Shown: piece by piece, positions 38,562 through 57,989 of the stretch
Layout: every line of letters begins with the position of its first letter
Position numbering within the stretch: the stretch's first letter is position 1
Virus record (IMG/VR): IMGVR_UViG_3300005077_000565
Location: 64,001-128,000 of that record
Reading direction: 5' to 3' (one strand)
Length of the DNA: 64,000 nt
DNA from: a virus
Program-made: the position numbers and the translations under genes
The notes under the pieces: model-generated
Seen by the model: the letters and a program-made list of their open reading frames with translations, nothing else
What the model was told of the DNA's origin: nothing
The model's database searches: none

Positions 38562-38887
38562 ATCTTATTATACATCAGTTTAAAGAGTATAAGATCCTCA
38601 GTTCTGTAAAATCTAACTACCTTTTCCACTAATAGATTATCGGGATTATGATAATATCCGATCTTATATAATAGCTCGGGTATTTCCTGCTCTTTTAATA
38701 CTTGCCTGGCAGATCGACGGTCTGATATACTTACAACATTTTCACTAGGCCAGGTTTCAATCCAGGCCGCGATTTGCTGTGGCCGTGGGTTGGGTACGCC
38801 TAGATATTCAATGCATAATTTTGATGTATACAGACGCTCGTTTATATTTGCTCGAACATCTGTATACTGTTTTTCAAGACCCATCAT
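38558..38887 (-). CDS. Hypothetical protein
   Basis: 109-aa ORF between the AAA and vWA genes. Confidence 0.65.
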   Translation of the reverse strand: MMGLEKQYTDVRANINERLYTSKLCIEYLGVPNPRPQQIAAWIETWPSENVVSISDRRSARQVLKEQEIPELLYKIGYYHNPDNLLVEKVVRFYRTEDLILFKLMYNKI

Positions 38888-39990
38888 GCTTCTTTGATTA
38901 GGTGACCGTAATTTTTCATAAATTCTGGCCAGTGCTTCATTTTACGCAGGTTAGCGCTGACGCCATAGTTAATGAACACTAGACGAGTTGCCATGATGAT
39001 CATTTCTGGATCGAAATTGTTCATCCAGAATCCCAGGCAGTTGTCCAGCATGTCGTCAAACTCTTCTTTTTTCAGAGTCTTACCAATGTTGTCGTACTGC
39101 GCCTTGAGTTCGTAGGCCATGTTAGTGCTCAGTGAATACAAGGCACTGATTTCCTTGGTCTTGAGTTCAGTAATTTCACCGCGCAGGATCAGTGTGGGGT
39201 TGGGCAATTTGCTGGCAACCTTACGATGTGCCTTGAACTTGAGAGCAGTACCTTCACCCACTGCACCAGCCACCATGTCAGTGACTTCTTCATCACTAAA
39301 GTCTTCGGCATCACGCAGTGTCTCGCTAACAAAGCTCCAGCTACGTGGTGTAGCGAACGAACGATCGTTGCTCTGTGGATCAAAATTATAGAGGTCGCTT
39401 TTGCTGAATGTCAGATAGCCTACGACATCGGGATGAATATTTTTACCGGCTGCCCAGTTCAGCCAATCATCAAAGTCAACACGAATTTCATAGTGAACGA
39501 AACGATTGGCCAGTGGCTTGGGCATACGATAGGTGACGCCTTTGTCAGTTTCACGATTACCGGCCGCGACAATAACCACATTATCGGGCAGACGATATGT
39601 ACCAACACGACGATTCAGAATCAACTGGTAGGCAGCAGCCTGAACTGCCGGCGCCGCACCGTTGAGTTCGTCCAGAAATAAAACTACGATGTCGTACTTG
39701 TCAGCAGTTTCCTTGCTGGGGAGTTCGCTAGGTGGTGCCCACTCCATGGTATTGGATGTGGAATTATAGTAGGGAATACCTTTGATGTCAGTGGGCTCCC
39801 AGAGCGGAAGGCGAACGTCAATCAGTAGACTGTTACTGTATTCTTCGGCAATACCAGCAACCAAATCACTTTTACCGATGCCAGGAGCACCCCAGATCAT
39901 AACTGGGCGTTGATGTTTAAAATGGTGTTTGATGTATTTTTTGGCTTCGCTCAGTCGTACTGTGCGAGCATTGGTATCATTTGCTGACAT
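38884..39990 (-). CDS. MoxR-like AAA+ ATPase
   Basis: WGAPGIGKS Walker A, LFLDELN Walker B, AAGNR, LANRF, TPRSW. Confidence 0.9.
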   Translation of the reverse strand: MSANDTNARTVRLSEAKKYIKHHFKHQRPVMIWGAPGIGKSDLVAGIAEEYSNSLLIDVRLPLWEPTDIKGIPYYNSTSNTMEWAPPSELPSKETADKYDIVVLFLDELNGAAPAVQAAAYQLILNRRVGTYRLPDNVVIVAAGNRETDKGVTYRMPKPLANRFVHYEIRVDFDDWLNWAAGKNIHPDVVGYLTFSKSDLYNFDPQSNDRSFATPRSWSFVSETLRDAEDFSDEEVTDMVAGAVGEGTALKFKAHRKVASKLPNPTLILRGEITELKTKEISALYSLSTNMAYELKAQYDNIGKTLKKEEFDDMLDNCLGFWMNNFDPEMIIMATRLVFINYGVSANLRKMKHWPEFMKNYGHLIKEA

Positions 39991-43104: not shown

Positions 43105-43349
43105 ATTACAAACTCATCTCGATCAATCCAGTAATGCTTTACTACAGGTTCTCCGGGACCAGTAATCCAACACTCACCGTGATAGGCCAGTCGGCCCCAC
43201 AGTGTTTTTCCTGTTAAGTAACACTGTTTAGGAAGCCAGCAGAATTTTAACCTCCACCATTTTGCTCGATTCAGTCCCCAATCTTCTGACGGTGGACTAC
43301 ATTGTACATCACTTTCGAATGAGTTATCTAGTGGCATCATGTGCCCCAT
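43086..43349 (-). CDS. Hypothetical Trp-rich protein
   Basis: Short ORF in the operon. Confidence 0.6.
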   Translation of the reverse strand: MGHMMPLDNSFESDVQCSPPSEDWGLNRAKWWRLKFCWLPKQCYLTGKTLWGRLAYHGECWITGPGEPVVKHYWIDRDEFVIWQLKK

Positions 43350-44218
43350 GCATTCTTATACAAAGGTACCTGAAGTCTATCGCTGTAGCGTAGTCCGTAC
43401 TTAGTGGCAAGTTCGGCCACCTGACGATTGTTCATTGAGTAAACACTTTCAACACCGCCCACGGGCATAAGATATACAGGACCAGTAAAACCATTGGCGC
43501 GATAGACATCCACCGCCGCCAGTGCTTCTTCGGCATCCTGTGCTGTGGCAATTACAAACTTCAAATATGTATAACCATATTCTTCATATTCACAGACTAC
43601 ATCGGGTTGAATTGCTTCGTGTTGTGCTTCACCACTGCAACTGAGCTTGGCACTGACACTGAAAGTAATACTGTTCACGCCACGTCCCAGGTCAATACCG
43701 CCATTATGGTGCCACTCACGATGAATCCAAGTTTTGAAATCATCTGTGAGCTGTTGCGTGCCATTGGTTTCAAATGTTAGTTCTTTTAGACTACGCATTT
43801 TAGGATGCTCGAGTAATTCAGGATACGCACGTTGCCAACCTAACAGTGGTTCACCACCAGTGATAACCAAGTGCTCGTCTCGCCATTCTTTGTAGGGCAA
43901 TGTTTCGACAATCTGCTCGGCTAGATCAGCAGTGTCAATCATTGGGCTCAGGTCCTTAAATTCAGGATAGACTGCCGCATAACTGTCACAACCAGTGGTG
44001 ACCAGAGGTAATTCATTGTAGTTGTTGTATTTTTCGATATTATTAATAACCGCCAGCACTTCGGGATTATGCGACTCGCCAGCAGGAACATCGCTACGCC
44101 CAAATCCACGACATCTAAAGTTACAACCAAAAGTGCGCAGGAATACGCTGGGAACACCCATGTAGCGTCCCTCACCCTGGATTGAATAAAATAATTCTGA
44201 AACTTTAATTTTGCTCAT
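43337..44218 (-). CDS. queE: 7-carboxy-7-deazaguanine synthase (radical SAM)
   Basis: ELFYSIQGEG..GVPSVFLRTFGCNFRC..GCDS, ITGGEP, FETNGT, LKFV, RLQV. Confidence 0.88.
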   Translation of the reverse strand: MSKIKVSELFYSIQGEGRYMGVPSVFLRTFGCNFRCRGFGRSDVPAGESHNPEVLAVINNIEKYNNYNELPLVTTGCDSYAAVYPEFKDLSPMIDTADLAEQIVETLPYKEWRDEHLVITGGEPLLGWQRAYPELLEHPKMRSLKELTFETNGTQQLTDDFKTWIHREWHHNGGIDLGRGVNSITFSVSAKLSCSGEAQHEAIQPDVVCEYEEYGYTYLKFVIATAQDAEEALAAVDVYRANGFTGPVYLMPVGGVESVYSMNNRQVAELATKYGLRYSDRLQVPLYKNAWGT

Positions 44219-44258
44219 GATAAATTGTTGTGTTGCAAATCTTGACAATAATAGATTT

Positions 44259-44287
44259 ATTGTACTACAGGTGATATTTTATGTCAA
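44259..44287 (-). promoter_or_regulatory. Sigma70-like promoter of queE
   Basis: TTGACA-17 nt-TACAAT. Confidence 0.7.
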
Positions 44288-44289
44288 AA

Positions 44290-44475
44290 TTATTTTTTCT
44301 TGATCAGAGACCAAGTACCGTCCTGATTGTCATTCCACTCAATGACATCACCGACATCCCAGCCGGCAATTTGTAGTGCTTCGTCAGGGATCTGTAAAAA
44401 TAACTCACCAGACTCTGGATCTTCTTGTACATCAATAGTCCAGTGTTTTGAGTCCTGTGATTTTAAATTACTCAT
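44290..44475 (-). CDS. AbrB/MazE/SpoVT-like small DNA-binding protein
   Basis: LFLQIPDEALQIAGWDVGDVIEW. Confidence 0.65.
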   Translation of the reverse strand: MSNLKSQDSKHWTIDVQEDPESGELFLQIPDEALQIAGWDVGDVIEWNDNQDGTWSLIKKK

Positions 44476-44890
44476 TATTTTTCCTTCGATCTGCAACACG
44501 GTTGCGCAGATCACCGGAACTAAAACGATGATCACGCTTGTTGAAATATAAATCAATGTCGCGTTTACGGCAGATATCTTTGCCAGTAAAATCCTTGTCA
44601 CGATATTCTTCACCTAGAATCCTGACATCTATATGATACATACTGAGAATGTCCTCTAGGTCCTGCTCGGTGACATAGGGGATAATTTCGTCAACGTACC
44701 CCACGGCCTTGAGTTGTGTGTAGCGCTCGACTATAGTTTGTATAGGAGAATTTTTAGACGGGCGATCTATACTGGGGTCTACTTGTAGCCCGCAAATTAA
44801 ATAATCGCATTGACTCTTGGCATCGCGCAACATTTGTACGTGCCCGGCATGCAAGAGGTCAAAAGCAGAGCAGGTAAAACCAACCTTCAT
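44468..44890 (-). CDS. tagD: Glycerol-3-phosphate cytidylyltransferase-like protein
   Basis: SAFDLLHAGH, CDYLICGL, ER..L.AVGYVDE, FSSGDLR. Confidence 0.8.
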   Translation of the reverse strand: MKVGFTCSAFDLLHAGHVQMLRDAKSQCDYLICGLQVDPSIDRPSKNSPIQTIVERYTQLKAVGYVDEIIPYVTEQDLEDILSMYHIDVRILGEEYRDKDFTGKDICRKRDIDLYFNKRDHRFSSGDLRNRVADRRKNNE

Positions 44891-45126
44891 TTATTTCCCT
44901 CGATGATTTTTAATAATTTTAAATTTAGAACAAAGTTTTCCACCAACAGATGTGTAATTACTGCTTTGAGTACAGTGATATCTTCGTCCATTTCAATTAC
45001 GTGCCCGGCCATCAATTGGTATGCAGTGTGTTCGTCGACTGCAAGATCAGCCCAGTCTATAGGGTCAGCACGTTCAGACTCTAGAGCTAGTTCTACGATG
45101 TCATTGACTGTGGGTTTACCATTCAT
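44887..45126 (-). CDS. Hypothetical phage protein
   Basis: AAGGAG RBS before MNGKPTV; DPIDWADL..LLVENFVLNLKL. Confidence 0.7.
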   Translation of the reverse strand: MNGKPTVNDIVELALESERADPIDWADLAVDEHTAYQLMAGHVIEMDEDITVLKAVITHLLVENFVLNLKLLKIIEGNK

Positions 45127-46462
45127 ACCAAAACTCCTTAAATTCCGGGCATGCTTCAAGTATACTGGTTTTCCTTACAGCGTCAAGAGCACCAACATGT
45201 CGCCGCGCCAGTTTTCTAAGTTCAACTACATTGTCGGGCTCGGGCTCCTGTAGTGTACGTTCAATGATCGACCATTGACTGGGCCAGCCAGCCCGCCCGG
45301 ATCGATCTCCACCCTGTGTATATTTTTCATGATTTGGCAACGAGAAAATATAAGAACGCAAAGATTCCAGCAGTGCTAGGCGATATTCCATTGGCAGTAC
45401 CTTGACTTGGAAATGCTCGGGCATTCTTAATATGCTTGACATTGTAATATGACCGGGTATCCCTGTAGATTCAAACCACTCAATTAGTTCAGCAAGTCCT
45501 GCCACCGTATACATACTGACTGTGGCATTTATGTTTAGGCCAATGTTTGGCTTCACTGTGCTGATGTAATGTTTTATTTGTTCTATATTTGCGTGAATGT
45601 TCGCCCAACGTGTGCCGTTTCTGGCCCATTCGGCCCGAGCACCAGTGCAGTCTATACTGGCACCAATGCCGATATAATTAAATTTAGACCAGTATTGATT
45701 CAATATATCAATGTTTTGATAATTTAATTTCAGCAAATTAGTATTGTAGGACAACATACAATCAAATCTCTGATGCTCTGCTAGCAGATCCAAAATTTCG
45801 TAATGCAGGCGACTGATCATTGGTTCGCCGCCGGCAAAATATATTTCCTGAATAGTTTCTATATTATCTAACACTGACTGTCTGATATTCACTAACCCCT
45901 GATCTGAAACATTTAACACAGCACCGTCAGTATTTGCCGCCTTTATCGGTGCCACTGGATAATCCCGCTTAAACCCAAAATTATCAAGAGCTTCCTGTTG
46001 TATCATGCTACTATATCCCGGAGAGCACATCACACATTTCATATTGCATAGATTCGTGTTGCGTACATCCCAGTATATCAGCGGTGTGTCTATAGAGACT
46101 GCACCAGTCTCATCATAGTCCAGTGATACTAGACTGCTGGAGAATTTTTCATTGGTCTGCATTCGATAACTACTGCCAATTTGTCGCTCCATGTCCCAGC
46201 ATGTTTTACAGATTGAATTTTCAACACCGGAAATCATGTCGCGTCTTAGTGACTTCCAGACGCCACTGTTCCTGGCTGATATAATATTGTTTTTGTTGAT
46301 GTTTATAGATTCTAAATCATCACTGTCTAGTTTATACCGATTATCGAATACTACACCTGCAGTATGGCAACAGGGTAAAAATTCACCGCCAGGCAGAACA
46401 TGCGCACCCTGCCAGGCACGCACACATATTTTATTATTTCCAGGTAGCTTGTCGTACTGCAT
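45116..46462 (-). CDS. Radical SAM protein with N-terminal twitch domain
   Basis: CNMKCVMC, FAGGEP; ICVRAW..PCC..CKTCW. Confidence 0.9.
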   Translation of the reverse strand: MQYDKLPGNNKICVRAWQGAHVLPGGEFLPCCHTAGVVFDNRYKLDSDDLESININKNNIISARNSGVWKSLRRDMISGVENSICKTCWDMERQIGSSYRMQTNEKFSSSLVSLDYDETGAVSIDTPLIYWDVRNTNLCNMKCVMCSPGYSSMIQQEALDNFGFKRDYPVAPIKAANTDGAVLNVSDQGLVNIRQSVLDNIETIQEIYFAGGEPMISRLHYEILDLLAEHQRFDCMLSYNTNLLKLNYQNIDILNQYWSKFNYIGIGASIDCTGARAEWARNGTRWANIHANIEQIKHYISTVKPNIGLNINATVSMYTVAGLAELIEWFESTGIPGHITMSSILRMPEHFQVKVLPMEYRLALLESLRSYIFSLPNHEKYTQGGDRSGRAGWPSQWSIIERTLQEPEPDNVVELRKLARRHVGALDAVRKTSILEACPEFKEFWYEW

Positions 46463-47826
46463 CACCAAGTATCCCAGAACTCATTGAATTCCGGACATGC
46501 TTTGAGAATACTAGTGTTTCTCATGGAATCCAGTGATGTTATGTACATTTTAGCACGTGCACGCAATTCTGAAACATTATCAGGTTCTGGTGATTCCATT
46601 ATCTTACGTAACAAATCCCACTGATCCGGCCATTTAGTTGCAGTATTAGTCTTGCCACTACTGGTATATCTGCGTTTGCGTTCTGGTTCCAGTGTTACAA
46701 TAAAGCTATCTAACTCGTGCATTAGTCGACGTCGATATTCCAGTGGTAATACAGTGATCTGATAAAAATTAGGAAACTGCAAGAAGTTGGTAATTGTTAC
46801 ATTACCATTAAACTGATGAGTTTCGCACCATTCGATGAGTTGTCGTAGTCCCGCAACAGTGTACATACTTAGCGTTACGTTTAACCCCATGTCAATACCG
46901 TTGTTTCCTGAATTCACTGCCTGCATAATTCTAGTAACATTTCGATCAATAACATCCCACTTGGTGCCGGCTCTGGCCCACTCAGCACGAGCTCCAACTG
47001 CATCTAGACTACCACGTAGTATAATTTTATCGAATTTGTTCCAATATTCAGTGATCACATCCTTGCCAAATTGATTTAGCTTTAATAAGTTGCTAGTATA
47101 AGTAAGTCTACAATCAGTTCTATTGGCGGCCAGCAATATATCCAATATGTCGTAGTGTGTCTGATTGATCAATGGCTCACCACCGGCGAAATATATTTCT
47201 TTAGTGATATCGACATTTTTCTTTAAATGTGTGATAATTTCGTTTTTTCCGAAATCACCAATATCGATTACTGCAGATATATTACCCCTAGTATCTGGAT
47301 ACGGGGGTTTGAAGTAATTAATTTTGTTTTCTTTATGTGCTTCTATAGTTTCTTGACAAAGCAAACTACTATAACCAGGTGAACACATAATACACTTCAT
47401 ATTACATAGGTTAGTGTCTCGTATATCCCAGTAGGAAATTTCATCAGTGTCTAGGGTACCGTCTGCATGATAATCAATTTCGTGCACAGTTTCTGAATGT
47501 TCAAAATTCGCCTGAATTCGATGACTGCCACCATGGGAATTTTCTAGATCCCAGCAGGACTTACAAATTGGATTTTGAACTCCATTAATTAAATCTTTTC
47601 TAAGTTGTTGCCAGACGTTGTGGTTTCTAATAGATGTAAGGTTGTTCTTGGATATGTTTATTTCATCCTGAACTTGTCTAGTAGTCAGTTCCTGACTCAT
47701 TGATTTTACATGTATTGCTGAACTAGTAAAGCAACAGGGTAGTACATGCCCGTCGGGTACTATATGCGCACCTCGCCAGGCCCGGACGCAGATTTTATTA
47801 TTTTTCGGTAATTCTGAATATTTCAT
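46462..47826 (-). CDS. Radical SAM protein with N-terminal twitch domain (tandem paralogue)
   Basis: CNMKCIMC, FAGGEP; ICVRAW..PCC..CKSCW. Confidence 0.9.
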   Translation of the reverse strand: MKYSELPKNNKICVRAWRGAHIVPDGHVLPCCFTSSAIHVKSMSQELTTRQVQDEINISKNNLTSIRNHNVWQQLRKDLINGVQNPICKSCWDLENSHGGSHRIQANFEHSETVHEIDYHADGTLDTDEISYWDIRDTNLCNMKCIMCSPGYSSLLCQETIEAHKENKINYFKPPYPDTRGNISAVIDIGDFGKNEIITHLKKNVDITKEIYFAGGEPLINQTHYDILDILLAANRTDCRLTYTSNLLKLNQFGKDVITEYWNKFDKIILRGSLDAVGARAEWARAGTKWDVIDRNVTRIMQAVNSGNNGIDMGLNVTLSMYTVAGLRQLIEWCETHQFNGNVTITNFLQFPNFYQITVLPLEYRRRLMHELDSFIVTLEPERKRRYTSSGKTNTATKWPDQWDLLRKIMESPEPDNVSELRARAKMYITSLDSMRNTSILKACPEFNEFWDTW

Positions 47827-48401
47827 TTTGGGCTCCAATGTACATTGCATCTGGGTTCGTATACGCCAGTACTACCCACAAGCAGCCGATCCCCGACTTC
47901 GGAAACTCGATAAGTTTTTGTGGCATCTCGGCCGCATACTGTACAAACTGCTTTAATTTTTTCAACAGTGTCGGCCAGGCCCATGAGTAGTGATGTCGTT
48001 TCAAAAGGTTCGCCTCGACTATCCTGATCTAAGCCGCCGACAACTACGTTTACGCCGGAGTTTAGCCATTGTGTTATGTGCCTGACAGTCTCATGAGTAT
48101 CTAAAAATTGAACCTCATCAAGAAACACCGTGTGATAGTTATAGGGCATGATCTTGTATTTCTCATCGATCTCTTTAAAAGAAGTAAAGCTCACTGATGG
48201 ATAACTTAGTTTATTGTGGGTTACAATGTGATCTTCACTGTATCGATCGTCACGTGCTGGTTTTAATACCAGCACACGCTGACGCTGGTGATCCAACCAG
48301 AGTACACGTTTCAGCAGGCTACTAGTTTTACCGGCGTACATGGGTCCACAGTATACTTCTAGTGTTCCGCGAACGACTTCGTATTTTTTATTTTCTGCCA
48401 T
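47823..48401 (-). CDS. tdk: Thymidine kinase
   Basis: GPMYAGKT, LDEVQF, GLDQD, CTVCG, YEPRC. Confidence 0.95.
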   Translation of the reverse strand: MAENKKYEVVRGTLEVYCGPMYAGKTSSLLKRVLWLDHQRQRVLVLKPARDDRYSEDHIVTHNKLSYPSVSFTSFKEIDEKYKIMPYNYHTVFLDEVQFLDTHETVRHITQWLNSGVNVVVGGLDQDSRGEPFETTSLLMGLADTVEKIKAVCTVCGRDATKTYRVSEVGDRLLVGSTGVYEPRCNVHWSPK

Positions 48402-48406
48402 ATATT

Positions 48407-48429
48407 AAAAAGGCCAGACGAATCTGGCC
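48407..48429 (-). terminator. Intrinsic terminator with UUCG loop after yhhQ
   Basis: GGCCAGA-TTCG-TCTGGCC-TTTTT on the minus strand. Confidence 0.75.
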
Positions 48430-48454
48430 CTGCGTGTTTACGATTTAACTAATA

Positions 48455-49063
48455 TTAATCGTTAAGTTTGCCATGTATGTATTTAAGCAAAACACCGTAG
48501 GCTGGCAGGAAGAATACTAGACCAACTACGATCTTAAGCACAGTCTGTGAACCTGCGATCTCCATCCAGTGTTCAGCCATGTAAGGATCTGCAGAATTCT
48601 GGAATGCCACAGCAAAGAATGTATAGCTGTCAATGACGTTGGCTACAATAGTGCTCAGTGCAGGAGCAGCCCACCATTGTTGCGTCCAGCGTTCACGAAT
48701 GTACTGGAATACGTATACGTCCAACAGTGTACCAATCAGGTAGGCAGTTGCTGAAGCAAAGCCAATGCGCAGTGCTACACTAGAGGGAGCGCCTTCCAGC
48801 AATACCACTAAAATACTTGTTAGGATGGCAAAGGGATAGGCGGCCGCAATAGTGGCACGAGCAATGCTCTTGCCAATTAAACGCACAGTGAGGTCAGTGG
48901 CCAGGATCACCAATGGGAATGTAAAAGCAGCCCAGGTTAACTTAACGCCCATGATTTCTACAGGGATACTAACAAGTGCGTTGGAAATTGTGATGATCAC
49001 AACATGCAACAATGCTAGTTTGAGCATCATTGCTCGATCGATATCTTTAAATAATGAAAACAT
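48455..49063 (-). CDS. yhhQ: preQ0/preQ1 (queuosine precursor) transporter
   Basis: LTWAAFTFPLVILATDLTVRLIG, RIGFASATAYLIGTLLDVYVF, IDSYTFFAVAF. Confidence 0.9.
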   Translation of the reverse strand: MFSLFKDIDRAMMLKLALLHVVIITISNALVSIPVEIMGVKLTWAAFTFPLVILATDLTVRLIGKSIARATIAAAYPFAILTSILVVLLEGAPSSVALRIGFASATAYLIGTLLDVYVFQYIRERWTQQWWAAPALSTIVANVIDSYTFFAVAFQNSADPYMAEHWMEIAGSQTVLKIVVGLVFFLPAYGVLLKYIHGKLND

Positions 49064-49078
49064 TTTTTTCTCCTTGAA

Positions 49079-49309
49079 TTATTTTTTCTTTTTACTGACA
49101 GTGGATTTAGTTTTGGGTTTGACTGGTGTCACATACACTGCGTTTTGCATGGCCAGCTGTACATCTTTTAATAGCTGCGCATCATCCCAGACTAGCTCAG
49201 TACGTCCGTTTTCGTAAGTCTTCACTGTTAGGTGAGAGCCCTGAACTACTTTGGGCCAGTCACCACTGTCGGCAGTTATTGTCACAGATTTCTTTTTACT
49301 AGTTGCCAT
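49079..49309 (-). CDS. Hypothetical protein
   Basis: 76-aa ORF with a basic C-terminus. Confidence 0.65.
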   Translation of the reverse strand: MATSKKKSVTITADSGDWPKVVQGSHLTVKTYENGRTELVWDDAQLLKDVQLAMQNAVYVTPVKPKTKSTVSKKKK

Positions 49310-49314
49310 TGTTA

Positions 49315-50019
49315 TTACCTCGGAGCAAATTCTTGTTGCATTTTAATATTGTCGAAGAATTCTTTCTTCGTACCGGCATCGGAATAAAAGCTACCCTTGA
49401 GCACAGTGGTCTGAGTCAAACTACTATGTGCCATGATACCACGATTCTCGCAACACCCATGGGTGGCCTGAATATAGACACCTAGGTTTTTTGCCCCGGT
49501 CGCACGCTCAATTTCTCGAGCAATATCGTTGGCTAATTCTTCCTGCAGAGTTCCTCGACGTGCACACCACTGTGCGATACGTGTATACTTGCTCAGTCCA
49601 ATAAGTTTATCAGCGGCAATAATACCAATATAGGCAACACCATTAACGGGCTGGTGATGATGGCTACACATACTGCGAATTTCACTGCGAACAACTAACA
49701 TACCCTCGTACCGATCAGTGGAATCGTTTGGAAATGCCGTTGCACTGGGAGCAGGATCATAGCGTCCACTCATGATCTCGTTAAAATACATCTTGGCCAA
49801 ACGGCGTGCTGTACCGTGACTGTTGGGATCATTTTCTCGATCAATCAGGAGATGATCCAGTACTAGTTCGAACGCACCAGTGGCTTCATCAATGAGTTTG
49901 TGTTTGATGTCCGGTGTGATGTATTCGCTGATGTTATCACCGGCCCAGAATCGTTTGTTATCCTGCTTCATGCGCTCACGAATCGCCTGAGCTAGGTTTT
50001 TTTCGGAAGTATTTCCCAT
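49315..50019 (-). CDS. folE: GTP cyclohydrolase I
   Basis: SMCSHH, IGLSKYTR, LQEEL, ATHGCCENRG. Confidence 0.93.
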   Translation of the reverse strand: MGNTSEKNLAQAIRERMKQDNKRFWAGDNISEYITPDIKHKLIDEATGAFELVLDHLLIDRENDPNSHGTARRLAKMYFNEIMSGRYDPAPSATAFPNDSTDRYEGMLVVRSEIRSMCSHHHQPVNGVAYIGIIAADKLIGLSKYTRIAQWCARRGTLQEELANDIAREIERATGAKNLGVYIQATHGCCENRGIMAHSSLTQTTVLKGSFYSDAGTKKEFFDNIKMQQEFAPR

Positions 50020-50040
50020 GCACTAAGTTCCTTTTTAGTT

Positions 50041-51114
50041 TTATTTCAAAATGTTATTAATCATAACAGTACTATTTAGATAATTGTCAATCAAAATCTG
50101 CTGTTGTCGGCGGATACTGTCCTGATATTTTTCTATATTATTAATGCGTTCACTGATAAAGTCAACGATATTTTGCCTATTAGTACGATAGGCGTCCAAA
50201 CTGGAGGTCCACTCTGCGGGGTATTTAAACTCCGGCAGATACATTTCATGATAACTGGCGCGATCTGGTACGATTGGTACTGCCCCGGTCAAGACTGCTT
50301 CCATGACACTGATGCCTAGATTTTCATGTAGTGCACAACTAAAAATAGCGGCACTCTCGCCCATGACACGATAGTAATCGGCCTTGTTCAGTGACATCTT
50401 CTGTGTGATGACCATGTCGAAAGATTTAGCTAAATCTTCTGCAATCTCTGGTTGTTTGTCGGCGTTGTATCGATGAGGCCACATGACACGACGCTTCTTT
50501 TCAGTATTCTGATAGGGCGTCAACTGATCCACAATTAGTTCATGTGGCTGACCACTACGAACTGCACGGCCATGGAATTCTGGCAGAATATTCAAATTCT
50601 TTAGGAACATGTCCTTGTGGAAATCTGTGGCGTAATAGTTATAGTCACTGGCATAAAACCAACTACGTTCAGCCTCCCAGGGCCAGGGCTTCTTCATTTT
50701 GTATCCCAGGATGTCTGTGGGATCATAGGCGCCAGCATGCCAGATACTGTGAATTTCCACTGGGATATCCAGCAGATCACTCATGTATTTGATGGGTGTA
50801 ATTACAAAGTTCCAGGCGTCAGTCACTAAAAATTTATCACCAGGGCGAATTCGCCCCTGGCTGAACCATTTGGAAATTTCCAGGGCCTGTGACGCTTTAT
50901 AGACGTTGGTGGCACCGAAGTCCAGGAATGCGCCACTGGATGTTTTATCCTCGATGCCGGCACCGTAGACTGTTACTACATCATAGCTCAGTCCGCGACG
51001 CTGAATCTCACATTCTAAAATTTTAGGAATATTATCGTACCACTGACGTGTGTAACGCTGATCAATTGGTTCAATGGGTACAATATAAATTGTGTTATTT
51101 GCCATAGTTTTCAT
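50041..51114 (-). CDS. GT-B (GT4-like) glycosyltransferase
   Basis: WPHRYNADKQPE, HENLGISVMEAVLTGAVPIVP (Ex7E motif). Start may be 51105. Confidence 0.8.
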   Translation of the reverse strand: MKTMANNTIYIVPIEPIDQRYTRQWYDNIPKILECEIQRRGLSYDVVTVYGAGIEDKTSSGAFLDFGATNVYKASQALEISKWFSQGRIRPGDKFLVTDAWNFVITPIKYMSDLLDIPVEIHSIWHAGAYDPTDILGYKMKKPWPWEAERSWFYASDYNYYATDFHKDMFLKNLNILPEFHGRAVRSGQPHELIVDQLTPYQNTEKKRRVMWPHRYNADKQPEIAEDLAKSFDMVITQKMSLNKADYYRVMGESAAIFSCALHENLGISVMEAVLTGAVPIVPDRASYHEMYLPEFKYPAEWTSSLDAYRTNRQNIVDFISERINNIEKYQDSIRRQQQILIDNYLNSTVMINNILK

Positions 51115-51880
51115 CTACACCTTGTCGTTCAATATCTGATTCAATGCAATCATCACCATATTGTATTTCAACAACCCTGCAGGGCACGTCGAAGGGATTG
51201 GTGAGTTGATGCCATTCACCAACAAGTATAACATGAGAACGGTGTTTATTTAACTCTATTGCTGGTAAAAGATAGCCATTGGCAGTCTGTGAATTTAGAA
51301 TACTAGCACCCTCACTGACAATCCAGTATTCGTTTCGCTTATTGTGCCGTTGCATGCTTAACTTCTGGCCGGGATCTACAGTAATTTCCTTGACTTTCAT
51401 TCCTGGTACTTCGTGCAATACACGGTAGTAGCCCCAGGGGCGATGTGTTTTTGGTGCCTTCCATTCCTGAAGAATCCAGCTGGAACTGTTCTTTTTGTCT
51501 TCGCCACCGACTCCAAACACAAACTCCAGATTGTCATCTTGAATATCCATTTCTGGAATATTAGTCTTGGTTCGATCACCACCATTGGCAAAGATGATTC
51601 GGTCCTGTGGATAGCTCTGCCGAACCATACGAATTGCATCCTTGGCAGACCCGTCATCATCATTAAATGTAATGACAAAGTCTACTCCGGTGATGTTCTT
51701 GACAATTTCACATCGCTCGGAAGACGGCATAAACGGAGCACCCTTTTTACGAGTCAACCAAGGGTCGCTGTTAACACCCACAACTAGAATATCTCCTAGT
51801 TTTTTTGCTGCCTTGAAGTACGCAATATGCCCACTATGCAGTGGGTCAAATCCTCCAGTAATTAATACCACTTTTTTCAT
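51095..51880 (-). CDS. Cytidylyltransferase-like (RfaE II-type) plus mannose-6-phosphate-isomerase-like cupin fusion
   Basis: TGGFDPLHSGH, FANGGDR, NSSSWIL; RPWGYY..LSMQRHNKRNEYW..VEIQYG..EsDIER. Confidence 0.85.
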   Translation of the reverse strand: MKKVVLITGGFDPLHSGHIAYFKAAKKLGDILVVGVNSDPWLTRKKGAPFMPSSERCEIVKNITGVDFVITFNDDDGSAKDAIRMVRQSYPQDRIIFANGGDRTKTNIPEMDIQDDNLEFVFGVGGEDKKNSSSWILQEWKAPKTHRPWGYYRVLHEVPGMKVKEITVDPGQKLSMQRHNKRNEYWIVSEGASILNSQTANGYLLPAIELNKHRSHVILVGEWHQLTNPFDVPCRVVEIQYGDDCIESDIERQGVDENYGK

Positions 51881-51882
51881 TG

Positions 51883-53391
51883 TTATTCTCCGAGATTTTC
51901 TAAGAATTCTTCAGCCGCGTCTTCCTGTTCCGGGGACATTTCGTCAGCCTCACCAATATATTGATCTTCAACTTCAAACAGGCAGTTAAAACTGTCAGTG
52001 GAACTGGTCAAAGACTTAGAGCCGTTGAAGTTAGCCAACATTGGTGCGGCCTCGTCCAGCATCTGCATGGGTGTCTCGCTACGGAATAGCTCGTCAATAA
52101 ACTGTGTCATGTAGATGATATTTCTGGGAACATAAGGACTGAACTGCTCTTCTTTACTGCCAGATTTAAGTTTACGCCAGTGACGATGATTGGTGGTCAC
52201 AGTGGACGATACTACGTCAGTCAGTGCATTCGCACGTTGAACACTTTCAATGTGCTGATATACATTGTGTGCCATGAGCAAGAAATAACTGAAACTATCC
52301 CAGCTGGTTTTGCCTTCTTTACCGACCTTGTTGAGCATGCCGGGTTTGTAGTGGCAGATATCGCCCAGTGTCAGACGCTCTGCGATGGGCCCACCGTAGG
52401 GGAAGGGAATAGTACTACCCGACAGCGCCTTGTTATCAAACGCACGATCCATGACATAACCAAATCTATCAGACTTGTGCACGTGCTGTGTATACATGGT
52501 GCCGTTGGCAGTGGCCAGGAATGGACTAGCACAGTCAAACATAACTTCAATGTCAGAGTTTACATGCTCACGTAACGCACGTTTGATGGCAGTATAGGCC
52601 ACGGCCCACTCTAGGCGACTGATACCTAGATAGTGTAGTAGATCTCGTTTACCACGCTCCAGCTGATGATCATCACGCATTTTGATCAGTGTGCGTAACA
52701 CGATATTAATGTCGTTCTTGGCACTACCTCCGAAGGCAAAACCGTCTAGATCATGATGCTTCATGTGCTCGTACCAGTATTCGGCTTCAGCCCAGTTACG
52801 GCCCTGCATGACGTTTAGGTACTTGGTCTGCCACTTGCGATTACGTTTAAACCACTCTACGTTGAAATCAGTGAATTCCAGACATTGATTAAAACTAGTG
52901 ATACCGGTACGTTTACTGAATGTAGGGTCGGCAGCCAGAGTGGGGATATCCAGAATCATTGAGTAATCACTGGTGTGCTCCAGCCAGTTCAAGATTGTAT
53001 GACGTAGGCTGTCATCAGTTTTAAAGTTGGGCCAGTCGCACTGAATAACGCCCTTGATGATCTGGAACCCACCGCTGTCACCCAGCATGAACGTATTTTT
53101 GCGATCGCGTTGCTGGACCATGGCGTCGTCAACATCAGCCTTGTTTAAATTAAGCTGAGCGTGGCCAGCTGAATACAACCCCCATTTGTAGGTAAAGTAC
53201 CCGGCATCCTGATTCAGAAAGTTGCAACCTTCAATGCCGTTTTCAAATCCCTGTGGGATTCTTTCCTGCGGCACAGCCACAGGATTGGCACGTTGCCGCG
53301 CAATGTAGTTATTGTAAAACGTACTGATACTAGGCAGAAAGACTGCATAGTCGCGGTTACGTTCAGTTAGATTAATACGTGTGGCAGACAT
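51883..53391 (-). CDS. dpdA: tRNA-guanine-transglycosylase-fold protein, DpdA-like (7-deazaguanine insertion into DNA)
   Basis: LGDSGGFQ, ILDIP, MQG, GFAFGG, HYLG, FDCASPF, AHN; linked to folE, queD, queE and yhhQ. Confidence 0.72.
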   Translation of the reverse strand: MSATRINLTERNRDYAVFLPSISTFYNNYIARQRANPVAVPQERIPQGFENGIEGCNFLNQDAGYFTYKWGLYSAGHAQLNLNKADVDDAMVQQRDRKNTFMLGDSGGFQIIKGVIQCDWPNFKTDDSLRHTILNWLEHTSDYSMILDIPTLAADPTFSKRTGITSFNQCLEFTDFNVEWFKRNRKWQTKYLNVMQGRNWAEAEYWYEHMKHHDLDGFAFGGSAKNDINIVLRTLIKMRDDHQLERGKRDLLHYLGISRLEWAVAYTAIKRALREHVNSDIEVMFDCASPFLATANGTMYTQHVHKSDRFGYVMDRAFDNKALSGSTIPFPYGGPIAERLTLGDICHYKPGMLNKVGKEGKTSWDSFSYFLLMAHNVYQHIESVQRANALTDVVSSTVTTNHRHWRKLKSGSKEEQFSPYVPRNIIYMTQFIDELFRSETPMQMLDEAAPMLANFNGSKSLTSSTDSFNCLFEVEDQYIGEADEMSPEQEDAAEEFLENLGE

Positions 53392-53400
53392 TTACATTCC

Positions 53401-54144
53401 TTAGACAGTCAAAGCTGGTAGAATGTAGTCGTATTTCCCAATCCCACTGTCAACGCTGATCTGAAGAGCACCACGACGGCTGATCTGCATCACGCAAGTA
53501 CCGCTCATGCCCAGTTTAAGAATAGCCAGAACCTGTGTCAGTGGCCAAGAGTAGCCTTCATTCAAGTCACCGTCTACGTTGGTGGCAAACGTTCTACGAC
53601 CAGTATAAGATCCATCAGCTGCACCCACTGTGATGATTAAATTACCGCCTTCAGTTTTAACTGTAAAGTTGGGTTCAATGCCACCATAGATACCAGCAAC
53701 CTGTGTCAATTCGCTGACCTTGGCTTTGGTGGGCTGGAATGTAACGTCCCACTCAACACCCTTGAACTTGACAGTCTGTAGTGTCTGATCGATGATTTCC
53801 TTGCTCATGAAGCGATAGCGGTCAGTGTTGCCGGCGGAATCCTTAAACAGCAGATGATCAGGAGATTCAACTCCGTTGCGTTCACGCTTTACCACGGTGA
53901 CACTGGAATCCTCTCCACTGTAGTTGGGTAGTTTGCTCACGCCACTCAGGAAGGGTAGATTCCCTAGGCCAAATTCCCCAACAAAGTCGGGTTCAGCGTT
54001 GTGTAGCTTTGCTTTAAGAATAACCGTGCGCTCACTGTCCATGGCATCCAGTAAAGTTTCGTCGTCAGTACCAGTGACCTTGACATTTTCAATAAAGCCT
54101 AGACCAGCAGTATGTTTCACGATATCAGCAATAACGTCTTTCAT
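53401..54144 (-). CDS. Sliding clamp (gp45/PCNA-like)
   Basis: About 247 aa, beta-rich two-lobed pattern, C-terminal GALQISVDSGIGKYDYILPA; near polB; strong RBS. Confidence 0.65.
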   Translation of the reverse strand: MKDVIADIVKHTAGLGFIENVKVTGTDDETLLDAMDSERTVILKAKLHNAEPDFVGEFGLGNLPFLSGVSKLPNYSGEDSSVTVVKRERNGVESPDHLLFKDSAGNTDRYRFMSKEIIDQTLQTVKFKGVEWDVTFQPTKAKVSELTQVAGIYGGIEPNFTVKTEGGNLIITVGAADGSYTGRRTFATNVDGDLNEGYSWPLTQVLAILKLGMSGTCVMQISRRGALQISVDSGIGKYDYILPALTV

Positions 54145-54173
54145 CAAGACTCTCCTTTAATATTAATAAGTTA

Positions 54174-54201
54174 AGTATATGTTATATTTAGATCAAGTCA
54201 A
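54174..54201 (-). promoter_or_regulatory. Sigma70-like promoter upstream of the clamp-dpdA operon
   Basis: TTGACT-16 nt-TATACT. Confidence 0.45.
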
Positions 54202-54226
54202 GATCTACCTAGAGTTATCCTGACAG

Positions 54227-54249
54227 ATTTCGGGGCTGGGCCCCGAAAT
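54227..54249 (-). terminator. GC-rich hairpin, probable terminator
   Basis: ATTTCGGGGC-TGG-GCCCCGAAAT immediately after the stop at 54253; no clear U-tract. Confidence 0.5.
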
Positions 54250-54252
54250 TGA

Positions 54253-54546
54253 TCACTTGTTTCTGTAATAGCCGCCGTTGGTCCAGGGAAACTGGAATGT
54301 ACCCACGTGAATTTTTAATTTCTTAGGGCTACGGTCAGCACTAAATTTAATATTCACATCGTAGGTGATGGCAGTTTCGCGATCAAAACTGTAGATGCTG
54401 AATTCACGAATCTTACCCTCGGCTCTGAGGTCGCTGAGGTAAGCGGCAAAAAGTTTATAAACTGGGCCACTCTGGCGTTGTTCCAGTACGCCGTCCCAGG
54501 GCTCGATGATCTTTAGAAGATCGTATTTTACATCATTAATGTTCAT
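54253..54546 (-). CDS. Hypothetical protein
   Basis: ORF starting MNINDVK. Confidence 0.65.
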   Translation of the reverse strand: MNINDVKYDLLKIIEPWDGVLEQRQSGPVYKLFAAYLSDLRAEGKIREFSIYSFDRETAITYDVNIKFSADRSPKKLKIHVGTFQFPWTNGGYYRNK

Positions 54547-54562
54547 GTAATGACTTGACATA

Positions 54563-54943
54563 TTATGCCTCAAACTTAACAATTGCACCATTTTCATTAT
54601 CTTCGCTGACAGAAATAGTCATACGTCGGCCAGGATAACGATCGTTGATCGAAGTTGCTAGATCTTCTGCGATCATTTCACAAGATTTGTGGTTCAGCAC
54701 CAGCGTACCTTGATCGTACAGTCGCTCCATCCAGCGTTTGAATTGAATGAATTCCACATCGCGGTCGTCATGAAATACTTCAAGTTCAACACGAAAGTGA
54801 AAAATATGACGATGTGGATATGCTAGAAAGCTAACATCATCCCAATCACCAGTGGCCAATTTAGGATCAGTCTCGGCTGCGGGATATCGGTGGATACCTT
54901 CTTTCTGAAACGTAACCCAAATTTTTGTCTTGGTTTTTTTCAT
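54563..54943 (-). CDS. queD: QueD/6-pyruvoyl-tetrahydropterin-synthase-like T-fold protein
   Basis: GIHRYP, HRHIFH, DVEF, SCEMIA, VSEDNENGA. Confidence 0.7.
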   Translation of the reverse strand: MKKTKTKIWVTFQKEGIHRYPAAETDPKLATGDWDDVSFLAYPHRHIFHFRVELEVFHDDRDVEFIQFKRWMERLYDQGTLVLNHKSCEMIAEDLATSINDRYPGRRMTISVSEDNENGAIVKFEA

Positions 54944-54947
54944 ATTA

Positions 54948-55112
54948 TTATTCAACTGCTAGTTTTTTTTCTAGACGCTGCATGATCTGTAGAATTTCCC
55001 ACAGTTTCCAGTCAATTGACTTTGCAAGCTCCATGAGCTGCTCAGCGGCGTCGCGTTTATCTTGTTCTTCATCAGGTACCTGATCCTCTACAAGACGAAT
55101 TTTTTTAACCAT
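54948..55112 (-). CDS. Small hypothetical protein not in the ORF track (54 aa)
   Basis: GGAG RBS; MVKKIRLVEDQ..AKSIDWKLWEILQIMQRLEKKLAVE*; fills the gap between neighbours. Confidence 0.75.
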   Translation of the reverse strand: MVKKIRLVEDQVPDEEQDKRDAAEQLMELAKSIDWKLWEILQIMQRLEKKLAVE

Positions 55113-55133
55113 TATTTTCTCCGAAATAATATA

Positions 55134-55334
55134 TTATACACATTGATTAAGTCGTTGCTTAATCAGCTTAATTTCATCGTTAATTTTAACTTTTTCCATT
55201 TTAAGTTCGTTAACGATTTCATCTTTGACATGACTAGAATACAACAATTCCATTCGTTTGTCAAGATCTTTTTTCTTCAACAACAAGTGGTCCAGGTGGT
55301 GTTGAAGTTTGTCTGGATGTAGATTTTTCGACAT
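55134..55334 (-). CDS. Small coiled-coil protein (DUF465/YdcH-like)
   Basis: HL..K..DLD..LKMEKVKINDEI. Confidence 0.55.
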   Translation of the reverse strand: MSKNLHPDKLQHHLDHLLLKKKDLDKRMELLYSSHVKDEIVNELKMEKVKINDEIKLIKQRLNQCV

Positions 55335-55346
55335 AAATTTTTCCTA

Positions 55347-57989
55347 TCAACCAAAATCAAATAAATCACTGAAGGTATTCTTTTCACTGGCACTCATTAG
55401 GTCCCAGTTCATAACGCCCAGGAGGTTGTCAATTTTCTGTGTAATGATGGCATCCTCCATGGCCTCGTCGTCAAAGGGCAAGTCCTTGAACCATTGCGGT
55501 ATTCGTTTTTCGTCGGTGGGTATACCGATACTGGTCATTCCCAGTGGGTTTGATTTGAGTTTGCACACAATAGTTTTCATACCATCAGTGATCTCCATGC
55601 TATAGGAATCACTGTTCATCTTGCGTAGACGGTTATAGTTGATGGCAGCCAGAGCGTGTCCAACACCACACTTACCGGTCTTTTCGTAGATTTTGGTGTG
55701 ATTGGTTAGATTGTTCACACGCTTGGGTGTGCCCTTTTCCCAGCTGGGCATCTGACGGAATGGTTTACGGAACTCTTTGATGCGTTCAATAACACTGCGT
55801 TCGCCCTGCCCGGTCAGTGTCATAACCAGCAATTCATTTAGGAAATCCTGTATGTATTTGGGTGTGTCACTGCGTTTAAGGTCCAGACCCATGGCTTTGA
55901 TCTTTCCAGGTTTACCTTCCTGATCTTCACGATAGCCTTCGTTATCATATACTAGGATAGCATAACGTTTTTTAGTAATGAAGATACCGGCTAGACCTAC
56001 AATTTCTCGACCAGCGGCAATAATTTTACCTAGCTCAGCGGGGCAATTGTGACCCTGATTCATATATTGACTAAATGTATCGTTGGCAGCTTCACAGACT
56101 GCGTCGTAATATTTTACAACACTGTCACGAGTCCATTCTAGTTCACCGCGTTGAATTTGGTCCTTGAGTACTGGGTATGCGCTGAAATAACAAGAGTCAG
56201 TGTCGCCGTAGATAATACTGCGTCCCGTGTGATTATATTCACCATCAATGATGCGATTGACTTCAGCCGCCATGTGTCGAGCAATACAACGGCCAGTCAG
56301 TGTAGTACTCTGCCCTAGACGTTGATCAAAAAAGCGACAACCGGCATTAAGTAGAGCACCGTATAGACTGTTTAGGTTAATCTTTTTAACCAGCTGACGC
56401 TTGTCCCAGAATGCATATTGTTTATCATCAACACCCTTGAAGCTCTTGGCTTTTTTCTGTAGTTCTTTACGTTCAGCGTACCAGCGTTCTAGTAGACCAG
56501 GAATCACACCCTGTACATCATGACGGAAGATTGTGGCATTGGCACTCAAGATCCAGGGCTGGCCGCTTAAAAACACTAGATCATATATTTCAGCCCCGGT
56601 GGCCTGAATACTAGAGCCATCTTCAAAATCAACTACAAGAATAGTCGAACGATCCTTGTCCATGATTAGCTCATACTCTGGACAGGCAAAACGACCTTCC
56701 CAGGCTTCAGACACCGTTTTATGGCTGGCCAAAAGTTCTTCAGTCAGCGTTTGTCGCACCTGGCCCACAATGGTTTCAGTGCTCATGTTGCCACTTCTGA
56801 GAATCGACGGGTACAAGCTGTTCAAGTCCATGCTGCCAATCCACTCGTGCATGCCTTTGACTGGTGTAGCCACGTATGCACCAGCTGCCTGCGTGCTGCC
56901 TTCATGACTGCGCTTGTCTGGAACTTGCATGCCTCGACGATGTGCTTCGTTGATAATAGCCTGTTCAGTCTGAGCCACGGCACCCATGGTGGTCTGCAAC
57001 AGCACGGTGTTGGCGTGCGCCAGGACGTTGGCTAGATCAATGAACTGAAGTTTTTTGTCTAGTTTAACCAGCAAGTCCACGTCCTGACGGTTATAGCCGA
57101 TAAACTTTTCAAAGTCATTGTTATATAACTGGTCCAGTGTACCTTCGTATTCTACTTTATGTTCTTTGAGTTCGTATTCGGCAATGGCATCTAGACTGTA
57201 GCTATGCATTTCATGGTAAGTATACTTGCGATACAGTTCCAGATAGTCCAGGTGTACACGCCCTACAGTTTCATAGGTTTCCTGAATCTTACCAAATTTT
57301 TCATATTCTTTGCGCTTGGGGTACTGATCCCAGAGGCAGAATTTTCTAGTATATTCTTTGCCTAGAACACGAGCAACTCGATTGACCAGATAGGGCACGT
57401 CGAACCCCTCACTGTTCCATCCGCTGATGACGTCAGCATCATCAATCAGCTCCAGGAATGTGGTCAGTAGATCTTCTTCGGACTCCATGAGCAGAGTGTC
57501 AGGGAATTTGTCTACAATGGCTTGCGCCTGATCGGCAGTTAATGTTTTTGGCGCTCGTACCAGACAGATAGTGCGCTCCAGCCAATTCAAATGAACTGCT
57601 ACTGCAGTCACTGGGTTAAAGGGGTCGCTGGGATCAGCAAACCCTAGTTCTTTGTTGAAGTCAACCTCAATGTCGAAAAATACAATGTGTAGGTCTGGTG
57701 CGTCGGCATTTAGATAATTTTCCTCAATACAACGGAATACTGGATTAATATCGCTCTCGTAGAGTTGCTTGTGGCTATATATTTTCTTCTCACGCTGAAA
57801 AATCTTGCCATTAGTAGTAACCACACGTGTCAGTGGCTCACCCCAGATACTTTTAAATTTTCCCTTGGGGTCGGGATAGTAGAATACATAGCGTGCTGGG
57901 AATTGCACATATTTTCTAACACCATCGCGGCGTTCCACAATATTGATCACATCACGATTGCGATCAATAATACCATCTACATAGCTCAT
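55347..57989 (-). CDS. Family B DNA polymerase (gp43-like)
   Basis: FFDIEV exo I, GWNSEGFD exo II, YNRQD exo III, DLNSLYPS, KINLNSLYG, YGDTDS, KKRY. Confidence 0.97.
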   Translation of the reverse strand: MSYVDGIIDRNRDVINIVERRDGVRKYVQFPARYVFYYPDPKGKFKSIWGEPLTRVVTTNGKIFQREKKIYSHKQLYESDINPVFRCIEENYLNADAPDLHIVFFDIEVDFNKELGFADPSDPFNPVTAVAVHLNWLERTICLVRAPKTLTADQAQAIVDKFPDTLLMESEEDLLTTFLELIDDADVISGWNSEGFDVPYLVNRVARVLGKEYTRKFCLWDQYPKRKEYEKFGKIQETYETVGRVHLDYLELYRKYTYHEMHSYSLDAIAEYELKEHKVEYEGTLDQLYNNDFEKFIGYNRQDVDLLVKLDKKLQFIDLANVLAHANTVLLQTTMGAVAQTEQAIINEAHRRGMQVPDKRSHEGSTQAAGAYVATPVKGMHEWIGSMDLNSLYPSILRSGNMSTETIVGQVRQTLTEELLASHKTVSEAWEGRFACPEYELIMDKDRSTILVVDFEDGSSIQATGAEIYDLVFLSGQPWILSANATIFRHDVQGVIPGLLERWYAERKELQKKAKSFKGVDDKQYAFWDKRQLVKKINLNSLYGALLNAGCRFFDQRLGQSTTLTGRCIARHMAAEVNRIIDGEYNHTGRSIIYGDTDSCYFSAYPVLKDQIQRGELEWTRDSVVKYYDAVCEAANDTFSQYMNQGHNCPAELGKIIAAGREIVGLAGIFITKKRYAILVYDNEGYREDQEGKPGKIKAMGLDLKRSDTPKYIQDFLNELLVMTLTGQGERSVIERIKEFRKPFRQMPSWEKGTPKRVNNLTNHTKIYEKTGKCGVGHALAAINYNRLRKMNSDSYSMEITDGMKTIVCKLKSNPLGMTSIGIPTDEKRIPQWFKDLPFDDEAMEDAIITQKIDNLLGVMNWDLMSASEKNTFSDLFDFG

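Follow-up and report, generated by a model that had tools for sequence, protein, structure and literature searches.

The subject here is a short peptide in the C-terminal tail of a DpdA-like guanine transglycosylase of a marine jumbo phage, and its likeness to the end of the DNA polymerase of the same virus. Both are encoded in a single IMG/VR virus record, IMGVR_UViG_3300005077_000565, that is 168,158 bp long and of which the window, the whole 64,000-nucleotide stretch that was analyzed, comprises bases 64001-128000. Because a record of that length is rated just 47% complete, it is a fragment of a jumbo phage. No phage genome matched the region in a Megablast search, which thus revealed no close nucleotide relative.

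The locus

The order on the minus strand is polymerase, three small genes, the gene for a predicted sliding clamp of 248 amino acids (aa), and the 502-aa enzyme gene (Table 1). The polymerase gene is 1.2 kb upstream of the clamp gene. An earlier note on this DNA, made from the sequence alone, had the enzyme gene following directly on that of the clamp, and the two are indeed separated by just 9 nucleotides (nt). It had also drawn attention to two similar peptides, DSFNCLFEVE in the enzyme (residues 466-475) and NTFSDLFDFG at the end of the polymerase, and had proposed that the enzyme is loaded on the clamp by the former. The letters of the window have both peptides on the minus strand with the sequences and at the coordinates that it gave.

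Table 1. Features of the window relevant to the proposed clamp tether and to 7-deazaguanine synthesis
Feature	Position in window	Strand	Basis
Family-B replicative DNA polymerase, 880 aa, RB69/T4 gp43 type	55347..57989	-	Pfam, PHROG, phmmer
Polymerase C-terminal peptide NTFSDLFDFG, presumed clamp-binding tail	55350..55379	-	Sequence, related tails, likeness to T4
Predicted sliding clamp, 248 aa, PCNA-like two-domain protomer	53401..54147	-	Predicted fold
DpdA-like guanine transglycosylase, 502 aa	51883..53391	-	Predicted fold and catalytic aspartates
TGT-fold catalytic core, residues ~12-437, with D105, D148 and D286	52081..53358	-	Range aligned to TGT structures
Predicted disordered linker holding the motif, residues 459-482	51946..52017	-	AlphaFold2 pLDDT <50
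Short linear motif SFNCLFE, residues 467-473 of 502; consensus [ST]-F-x-[SND]-L-F-[DE]	51973..51993	-	Homologue alignment
Acidic amphipathic C-terminal helix, residues 487-501	51889..51933	-	Model and conservation
GTP cyclohydrolase I (FolE), first step of 7-deazaguanine synthesis	49315..50019	-	Pfam GTP_cyclohydroI, E 8e-37
Vut_1/YhhQ-type transporter (queuosine-precursor transporter family)	48455..49063	-	Pfam Vut_1, E 2.5e-25
QueE-like radical-SAM enzyme (7-carboxy-7-deazaguanine synthase)	43337..44248	-	phrog_2076, E 4e-48

The enzyme and its family

Identification of the clamp and the enzyme from sequence failed, and so fold prediction was needed. The enzyme has no Pfam family at an expectation value (E) of 0.01 or below, PF01702 (TGT) included, and no PHROG match. 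The clamp protein has no Pfam match and among PHROGs has only phrog_12062, of 'unknown function', and neither protein had a match when PDB sequences were searched with phmmer and hmmsearch.

The AlphaFold2 monomer model of the enzyme has a predicted local distance difference test (pLDDT) score of 88.3. Its top 50 Foldseek matches are all tRNA-guanine transglycosylases (TGTs) or archaeosine transglycosylases (best E ~3e-8), and VIA-align superposes some 300 residues on the TGT-type (beta/alpha)8 barrel at Z 19-20 and a root-mean-square deviation (rmsd) of 4.1-4.6 A. D105 (in GDSGGFQ), D148 (SMILDIP) and D286 (MFDC) are invariant in a family alignment of 52 sequences, and share local motifs with D89 (TDSGGFQ), D143 (MIFDEC) and D264 (MFDC) of Escherichia coli TGT. 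Three aspartates, serving as general acid/base, in base recognition and as nucleophile, define catalysis in TGT and DpdA alike (PMC10164549). With hhalign the enzyme family profile has a local match only to E. coli TGT, at E 0.0016. In tRNA TGTs there is a zinc site, CxCxxC...H; the 502-aa protein has no CxCxxC, a lack that argues against a canonical tRNA TGT and is silent on the superfamily fold.

The closest cultured relative is EST35_0316 of phage PA5oct, with 35% identity over its full length (L001 of MK797984.1, 8995-10617); it is annotated 'hypothetical protein'. The pattern in which PA5oct DNA withstands several restriction enzymes points to a modified G (PMC12191111), and a deazaguanine synthesis and incorporation system was noted in PA5oct by Iyer et al. 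(PMC7824862). Given the predicted TGT fold, the three aspartates, the deazaguanine genes of the record and the modified-G pattern of PA5oct, the TGT/DpdA-like label that the 502-aa protein had been given in the earlier note is well founded. The enzyme probably swaps guanine in phage DNA for a 7-deazaguanine, DNA rather than tRNA being the substrate that these features suggest.

Like bacterial DpdA (bDpdA) and DpdA1-4, the enzyme has a TGT-type barrel with three invariant aspartates and is co-encoded with FolE, QueD and QueE (PMC10516641, PMC10164549). Unlike the DpdAs described so far, it is without a Pfam TGT match and without CxCxxC, is about 500 aa in length and has a long tail. It is also without an evident counterpart of DpdB, the ATPase partner in the bacterial Dpd system, whose ATP hydrolysis DpdA needs there for reasons that are unclear (PMC10164549). 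Placement within DpdA1-4 by sequence failed. There was no tblastn match to DpdA3 of Cellulophaga or Campylobacter phages, and in Campylobacter phage CP220 neither the Pfam TGT family, nor the enzyme family profile, nor two annotated regions revealed DpdA3. (The CP220 polymerase tail is ...TETLEEW, which is not of the LF type.) Metagenomes hold 7209 homologues of the enzyme, a large DpdA-like subfamily that Pfam and PHROGs do not recognize.

The clamp, its loader and the polymerase

The clamp model, for which the input was a 124-sequence alignment from a representative search, is a monomer with pLDDT 96.6 and a predicted template modeling score of 0.92. PCNA alone is present among its top Foldseek matches (E 1e-12; template modeling score 0.65-0.72), and VIA-align superposes about 226 of its 248 residues on yeast, human and archaeal PCNA at Z 18-19 and an rmsd of ~3 A. 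Both of the topologically repeated clamp domains are present, with the VIA-align match spanning residues 1-248. The structural matches listed are all cellular PCNAs, with T4-type gp45 absent from the top ones. A clamp loader of the RFC-like AAA+ type is encoded elsewhere in the record by a 306-aa open reading frame (ORF) at 156964-157884 (PF13177, 36.6 bits, with RFC-type Walker motifs). Because of the PCNA fold of the model and the presence of an RFC-like loader in the same record, the 248-aa protein is taken to be a sliding clamp, in keeping with the label that it had received earlier.

Another AAA+ gene, at 38884-39990, was considered as clamp loader and rejected as MoxR-like. Three genes upstream of the RFC-like gene is a 172-aa ORF (record positions 158558-159076; L167 2639-3157, minus strand) with FSELFD at its residues 42-47 and a C-terminal GRGS...L-G motif that recalls DnaE; no relatives of it were found in IMG/VR. 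The PA5oct homologue of the clamp (L001 of MK797984.1, 7912-8658) is 40% identical and is annotated 'structural protein'.

The polymerase matches Pfam DNA_pol_B and DNA_pol_B_exo1 as well as phrog_262 (E 1e-197), and it aligns nearly end to end with RB69 gp43 chains (phmmer E 3e-70). A phmmer search of PDB sequences with its last 100 residues gave no match. Polymerases on related contigs have tails of the same [ST]-F-x-x-L-F type, and T4 gp43 ends ...EEKASLDFLFG. In a co-crystal of the RB69 clamp, the last 11 residues of the RB69 polymerase occupy a hydrophobic patch (PMC2988020). The LF-type, gp45-binding tail of T4 and RB69 gp43 on which the earlier note had relied is the precedent, with SLDFLFG as the T4 end and the window polymerase a homologue of RB69 gp43 (PMC2988020). 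In PA5oct the polymerase gene is interrupted by a homing-endonuclease gene.

A conserved peptide in an unconstrained linker

The conservation of the enzyme peptide was assessed in 145 non-redundant homologue tails, of 35-92% identity, from a protein search and from IMG/VR loci. F472 is present in all of them, L471 in 88%, and F468 and an acidic residue at 473 each in 87%, with these columns having 3.5-4.3 bits. The linker columns beside the motif (465-466 and 474-483) have ~0.8-1.7 bits and are nearly random. Such a sharp peak of conservation inside an unconstrained and predicted disordered linker means that SFNCLFE is not there by chance, and it has the signature of a short linear motif for interaction, borne by a flexible stretch of the protein.

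The statistics of pattern occurrence are much less telling, and it is from them that the idea of a functionless chance match between two low-complexity tails gains what it has in its favor. The pattern of the earlier note, [TS]F[SN].LF[DE], has an expectation of 0.01 occurrences per window proteome, but that value is circular as the pattern was built, post hoc, from the same two peptides. A looser one, [ST]F..[LIMF]F[DEST], is matched only by the polymerase and the enzyme among the 94 ORFs of the window, with 0.32 expected. A still looser one has six further matches among the 225 ORFs of the whole record, none of them in a comparable tail, and F..[LIMF]F as such shows no excess in the window proteome (10 occurrences against 12 expected). 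With an invariant F472 and near-invariant L471 and F468 in 145 homologues and in several distant lineages, a chance match is effectively refuted and is very improbable indeed.

The motif is not a canonical PCNA-interacting protein (PIP) box, Qxx[LIVM]xx[FY][FY], since it has neither the Q nor an aromatic pair in register.

The motif in distant lineages

The earlier note had made conservation in homologous tails a test of its proposal, and conservation extends down to about 35% identity and to PA5oct, where the enzyme has NSFNSLFD and the polymerase tail is HFDSLFGW. (No PA5oct-like relatives were found in IMG/VR.) Family members of 36-43% identity have versions such as FRVLFE and YFNLFE. Further away, the enzyme of Sinorhizobium phage Phosso (27% identity) has IVEGLF as its C-terminus, with its gene ~175 kb from that of the clamp, and a relative 70% identical to the Phosso enzyme ends in IIGGIFS after a wholly different linker. 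In this lineage the position of the motif is therefore the extreme C-terminus, as in the polymerase.

TGT-like proteins that are 23% identical to the window enzyme are encoded by Vibrio phage GR7B (L083 7614-9230) and Pseudomonas putida phage Aura (L084 7869-9239). Their tails have KTLFG and SSLFG, respectively, each followed by a Lys-rich end. No homologue of the family-B polymerase (PolB) or of the clamp was found in the GR7B and P. putida phage genomes, and their enzymes may pair the LF peptide with some other partner.

Linkage to the clamp gene and co-variation with the polymerase tail

Of the related loci, 147 have both genes, and in every one of them the clamp gene is on the same strand as the enzyme gene and upstream of it. 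The distance between the two is at most 150 nt in 82 of these loci and does not exceed ~1.5 kb in any.

Wherever a locus also takes in the polymerase C-terminus, this has a motif of the same type as that of the enzyme. Polymerase and enzyme pairs include TFNSLFE with VFNSLFE, TFNSLFD with SFNSLFE, and that of PA5oct, HFDSLFGW with SFNSLFD. When the six variable positions of the enzyme 7-mer were scored against the polymerase tail for 42 distinct genome pairs, and partners then shuffled, the mean BLOSUM62 similarity was 11.0 within genomes and 7.2 after shuffling (0 of 20000 permutations; p<5e-5, a value that overstates independence because the genomes are related). The polymerase was sought on ten further contigs to add pairs, and was not present on nine, all short fragments. 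Most of this signal comes from a single clade, one whose clamp is only 29-34% identical to that of the window. There the polymerase has [FYL]-[VI]-[DN]-[DE]-[LI]-F and the enzyme [AS]-[VI]-[HDN]-D-[IL]-F, so that in both motifs the first F is replaced by V or I and an aspartate is fixed before [LI]-F, i.e. [VI]-x-D-[LI]-F.

These relationships bear on whether the motif serves the enzyme itself, either with the acidic helix that follows it, as a lid or DNA mimic, or in oligomerization, with the likeness to the polymerase being convergent. That helix has the consensus E-x-E-x-A-x-x-F-L-E-x-L in the 145 homologues (E488 85%, A493 80%, L497 88%). In the model, 10-residue blocks of residues 481-502 average pLDDT ~60-75. 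The helix could be a DNA mimic, a lid or a second docking site, and could fold back on the DNA-binding face. Moreover, hydrophobic-acidic peptides are common, and several lineages alter the first aromatic residue of the motif without a matching change in the polymerase. AlphaFold, however, leaves the motif segment undocked on the barrel with pLDDT below 50, and internal packing would predict neither co-variation with the polymerase tail, nor linkage to the clamp gene, nor the move of the motif to the very end of the protein in Phosso and its relative. A purely intrinsic role is accordingly considered unlikely.

Which partner?

If the motif docks on a protein that the polymerase tail also uses, that protein could be other than the phage PCNA-like clamp. 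Candidates are the host beta clamp, the clamp loader and a single-strand-binding protein, any of which would likewise bring the enzyme to replication. The bacterial beta-clamp pentapeptide consensus is QL[SD]LF, which the x-S-L-F portion of the motif resembles, and it is the [ST][ST]LFG-type tails of the GR7B and P. putida phages, where PolB and clamp homologues were not found, that keep this alternative alive. Against it are that the phage encodes its own clamp and RFC-like loader, that clamp-enzyme synteny is universal in the family, and that the motif and the polymerase tail shift together exactly where the phage clamp diverges most. In addition, the polymerase is a homologue of RB69 gp43, and the gp43 tail binds gp45 (PMC2988020). 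A different partner of this kind is given a low probability.

The explanation favored here takes the linker peptide for a clamp-interaction motif that tethers the base-exchange enzyme to the phage clamp. It is considered probable, on the combined strength of the predicted folds, the motif conservation, the synteny, the co-variation, the distant lineages and the T4 precedent. The gp45-binding ends of T4 gp43, gp55 and gp33 are hydrophobic-acidic and interchangeable, and the linkers that carry them diverge (PMC2988020). The likeness to the clients of the T4 and RB69 clamps is in having an [ST]-hydrophobic-x-x-L-F peptide with acidic neighbors on a variable flexible linker, and in the peptide being common to the polymerase and a non-polymerase protein of the same phage. 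The difference from the T4 clients is that the window client is a base-exchange enzyme rather than a polymerase or transcription factor, with a motif that is internal and accompanied by an extra acidic helix.

The concept of a base-modifying enzyme being brought to newly replicated DNA by a clamp-binding peptide has a eukaryotic parallel. DNMT1 and UNG2 are DNA-modifying or base-processing enzymes that are tethered to PCNA via a canonical PIP box. The window motif is unlike theirs in not being a PIP box, and the chemistry is base exchange rather than methylation or excision. Full-text literature searches found no paper linking DpdA to a sliding clamp or a clamp-binding motif.

Several points weigh against a clamp tether. 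The enzyme motif is 30 residues before the C-terminus, and T4 clients carry theirs terminally. One clade gives most of the co-variation signal (without the divergent clade p is 0.03-0.05), and co-variation driven by a clade may reflect few evolutionary events. In some lineages the first aromatic residue of the enzyme motif has become H, M or N, with the polymerase keeping F. A search for a third motif-bearing clamp client in the 47%-complete record and ~150 related loci yielded weak or unconserved candidates only, the 172-aa ORF with FSELFD among them. A search for longer homologues found no clamp fusion proteins, though this is weak evidence. Lastly, on whether the subfamily acts on DNA or tRNA and on which base it inserts, the evidence is limited to the restriction resistance of the PA5oct relative, which points to a modified G (PMC12191111).

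Within the reach of sequence analysis, predicted structures and comparative genomics, the interpretation in the earlier note nevertheless finds support. In the mechanism proposed, FolE, QueD and QueE of the phage would supply the 7-deazaguanine that the enzyme would swap for guanine in phage DNA. The flexible linker behind the catalytic barrel would display the hydrophobic-acidic [ST]-F-x-x-L-F-[DE] peptide, which would dock in a hydrophobic pocket of the phage PCNA-like clamp. With the RFC-like loader putting clamps on replicating phage DNA, the enzyme would be held there, and would scan or modify the newly made duplex behind the fork. Coupling to replication, and perhaps a preference for phage over host DNA, would be features of such an arrangement.

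Deazaguanine genes and other neighbors

QueD/PTPS, the pathway member that is outside the window, is encoded at record positions 164111-164524; QueC was not found in the record, of which the 47% completeness should be kept in mind. The deazaguanine genes of the window are in a minus-strand cluster (43337-51880) where they are interleaved with genes for two radical-SAM/SPASM proteins (45116-46468 and 46462-47850), two cytidylyltransferase-like genes (44468-44890, and 51095-51880 in fusion with a mannose-6-P-isomerase-type cupin) and one for a 357-aa protein without assigned function (50041-51114). Judging by these interleaved genes, the inserted base may be decorated further. A gene set like this one is also found close to QueE in Campylobacter phage CP220.

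A 130-aa protein encoded between the polymerase and clamp genes (54563-54955, minus strand) matches phrog_17812, of unknown function. It has an HRHIFHF-type signature and appears to be a T-fold/QueD paralogue, one that differs from the QueD mentioned above. An ORF homologous to it also adjoins the clamp gene in phage Phosso. Within the replication and nucleotide-metabolism module there is also a gene for a large HNH endonuclease, probably a homing endonuclease (37311-38507, minus strand; phrog_1314, E 1e-110).

Implications for DNA modification by phage transglycosylases

DpdA insertion is held to be post-replicative, and its efficiency ranges from <0.1% to 100% of G depending on the subfamily (PMC10516641). 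There is also the question of how phage transglycosylases reach every target guanine of a genome of several hundred kb within one infection. A clamp-binding peptide offers a concrete and testable mechanism, in which the replisome toolbelt recruits the enzyme to freshly replicated phage DNA. A wider proposal, possible but with the odds somewhat against it, is that the marine and soil jumbo-phage DpdA subfamily of more than 7000 members, PA5oct included, consists of clamp clients. In that case base exchange would proceed processively along with replication, not as a post-replication reaction by free diffusion, the clamp would replace the DNA tracking proposed for DpdB, and hypermodification would be confined to DNA replicated by the phage replisome.

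Some DpdA subfamilies could not be reconstituted in E. coli (PMC10516641), and heterologous tests of enzymes of the present type may fail without the cognate clamp and loader. For PA5oct-like phages, which are therapeutic candidates, two proteins until now designated 'structural' and 'hypothetical' are annotated by this work as clamp and DpdA-like enzyme, respectively. What is new is the definition of a large DpdA-like subfamily and, as a proposal, a new class of sliding-clamp client.

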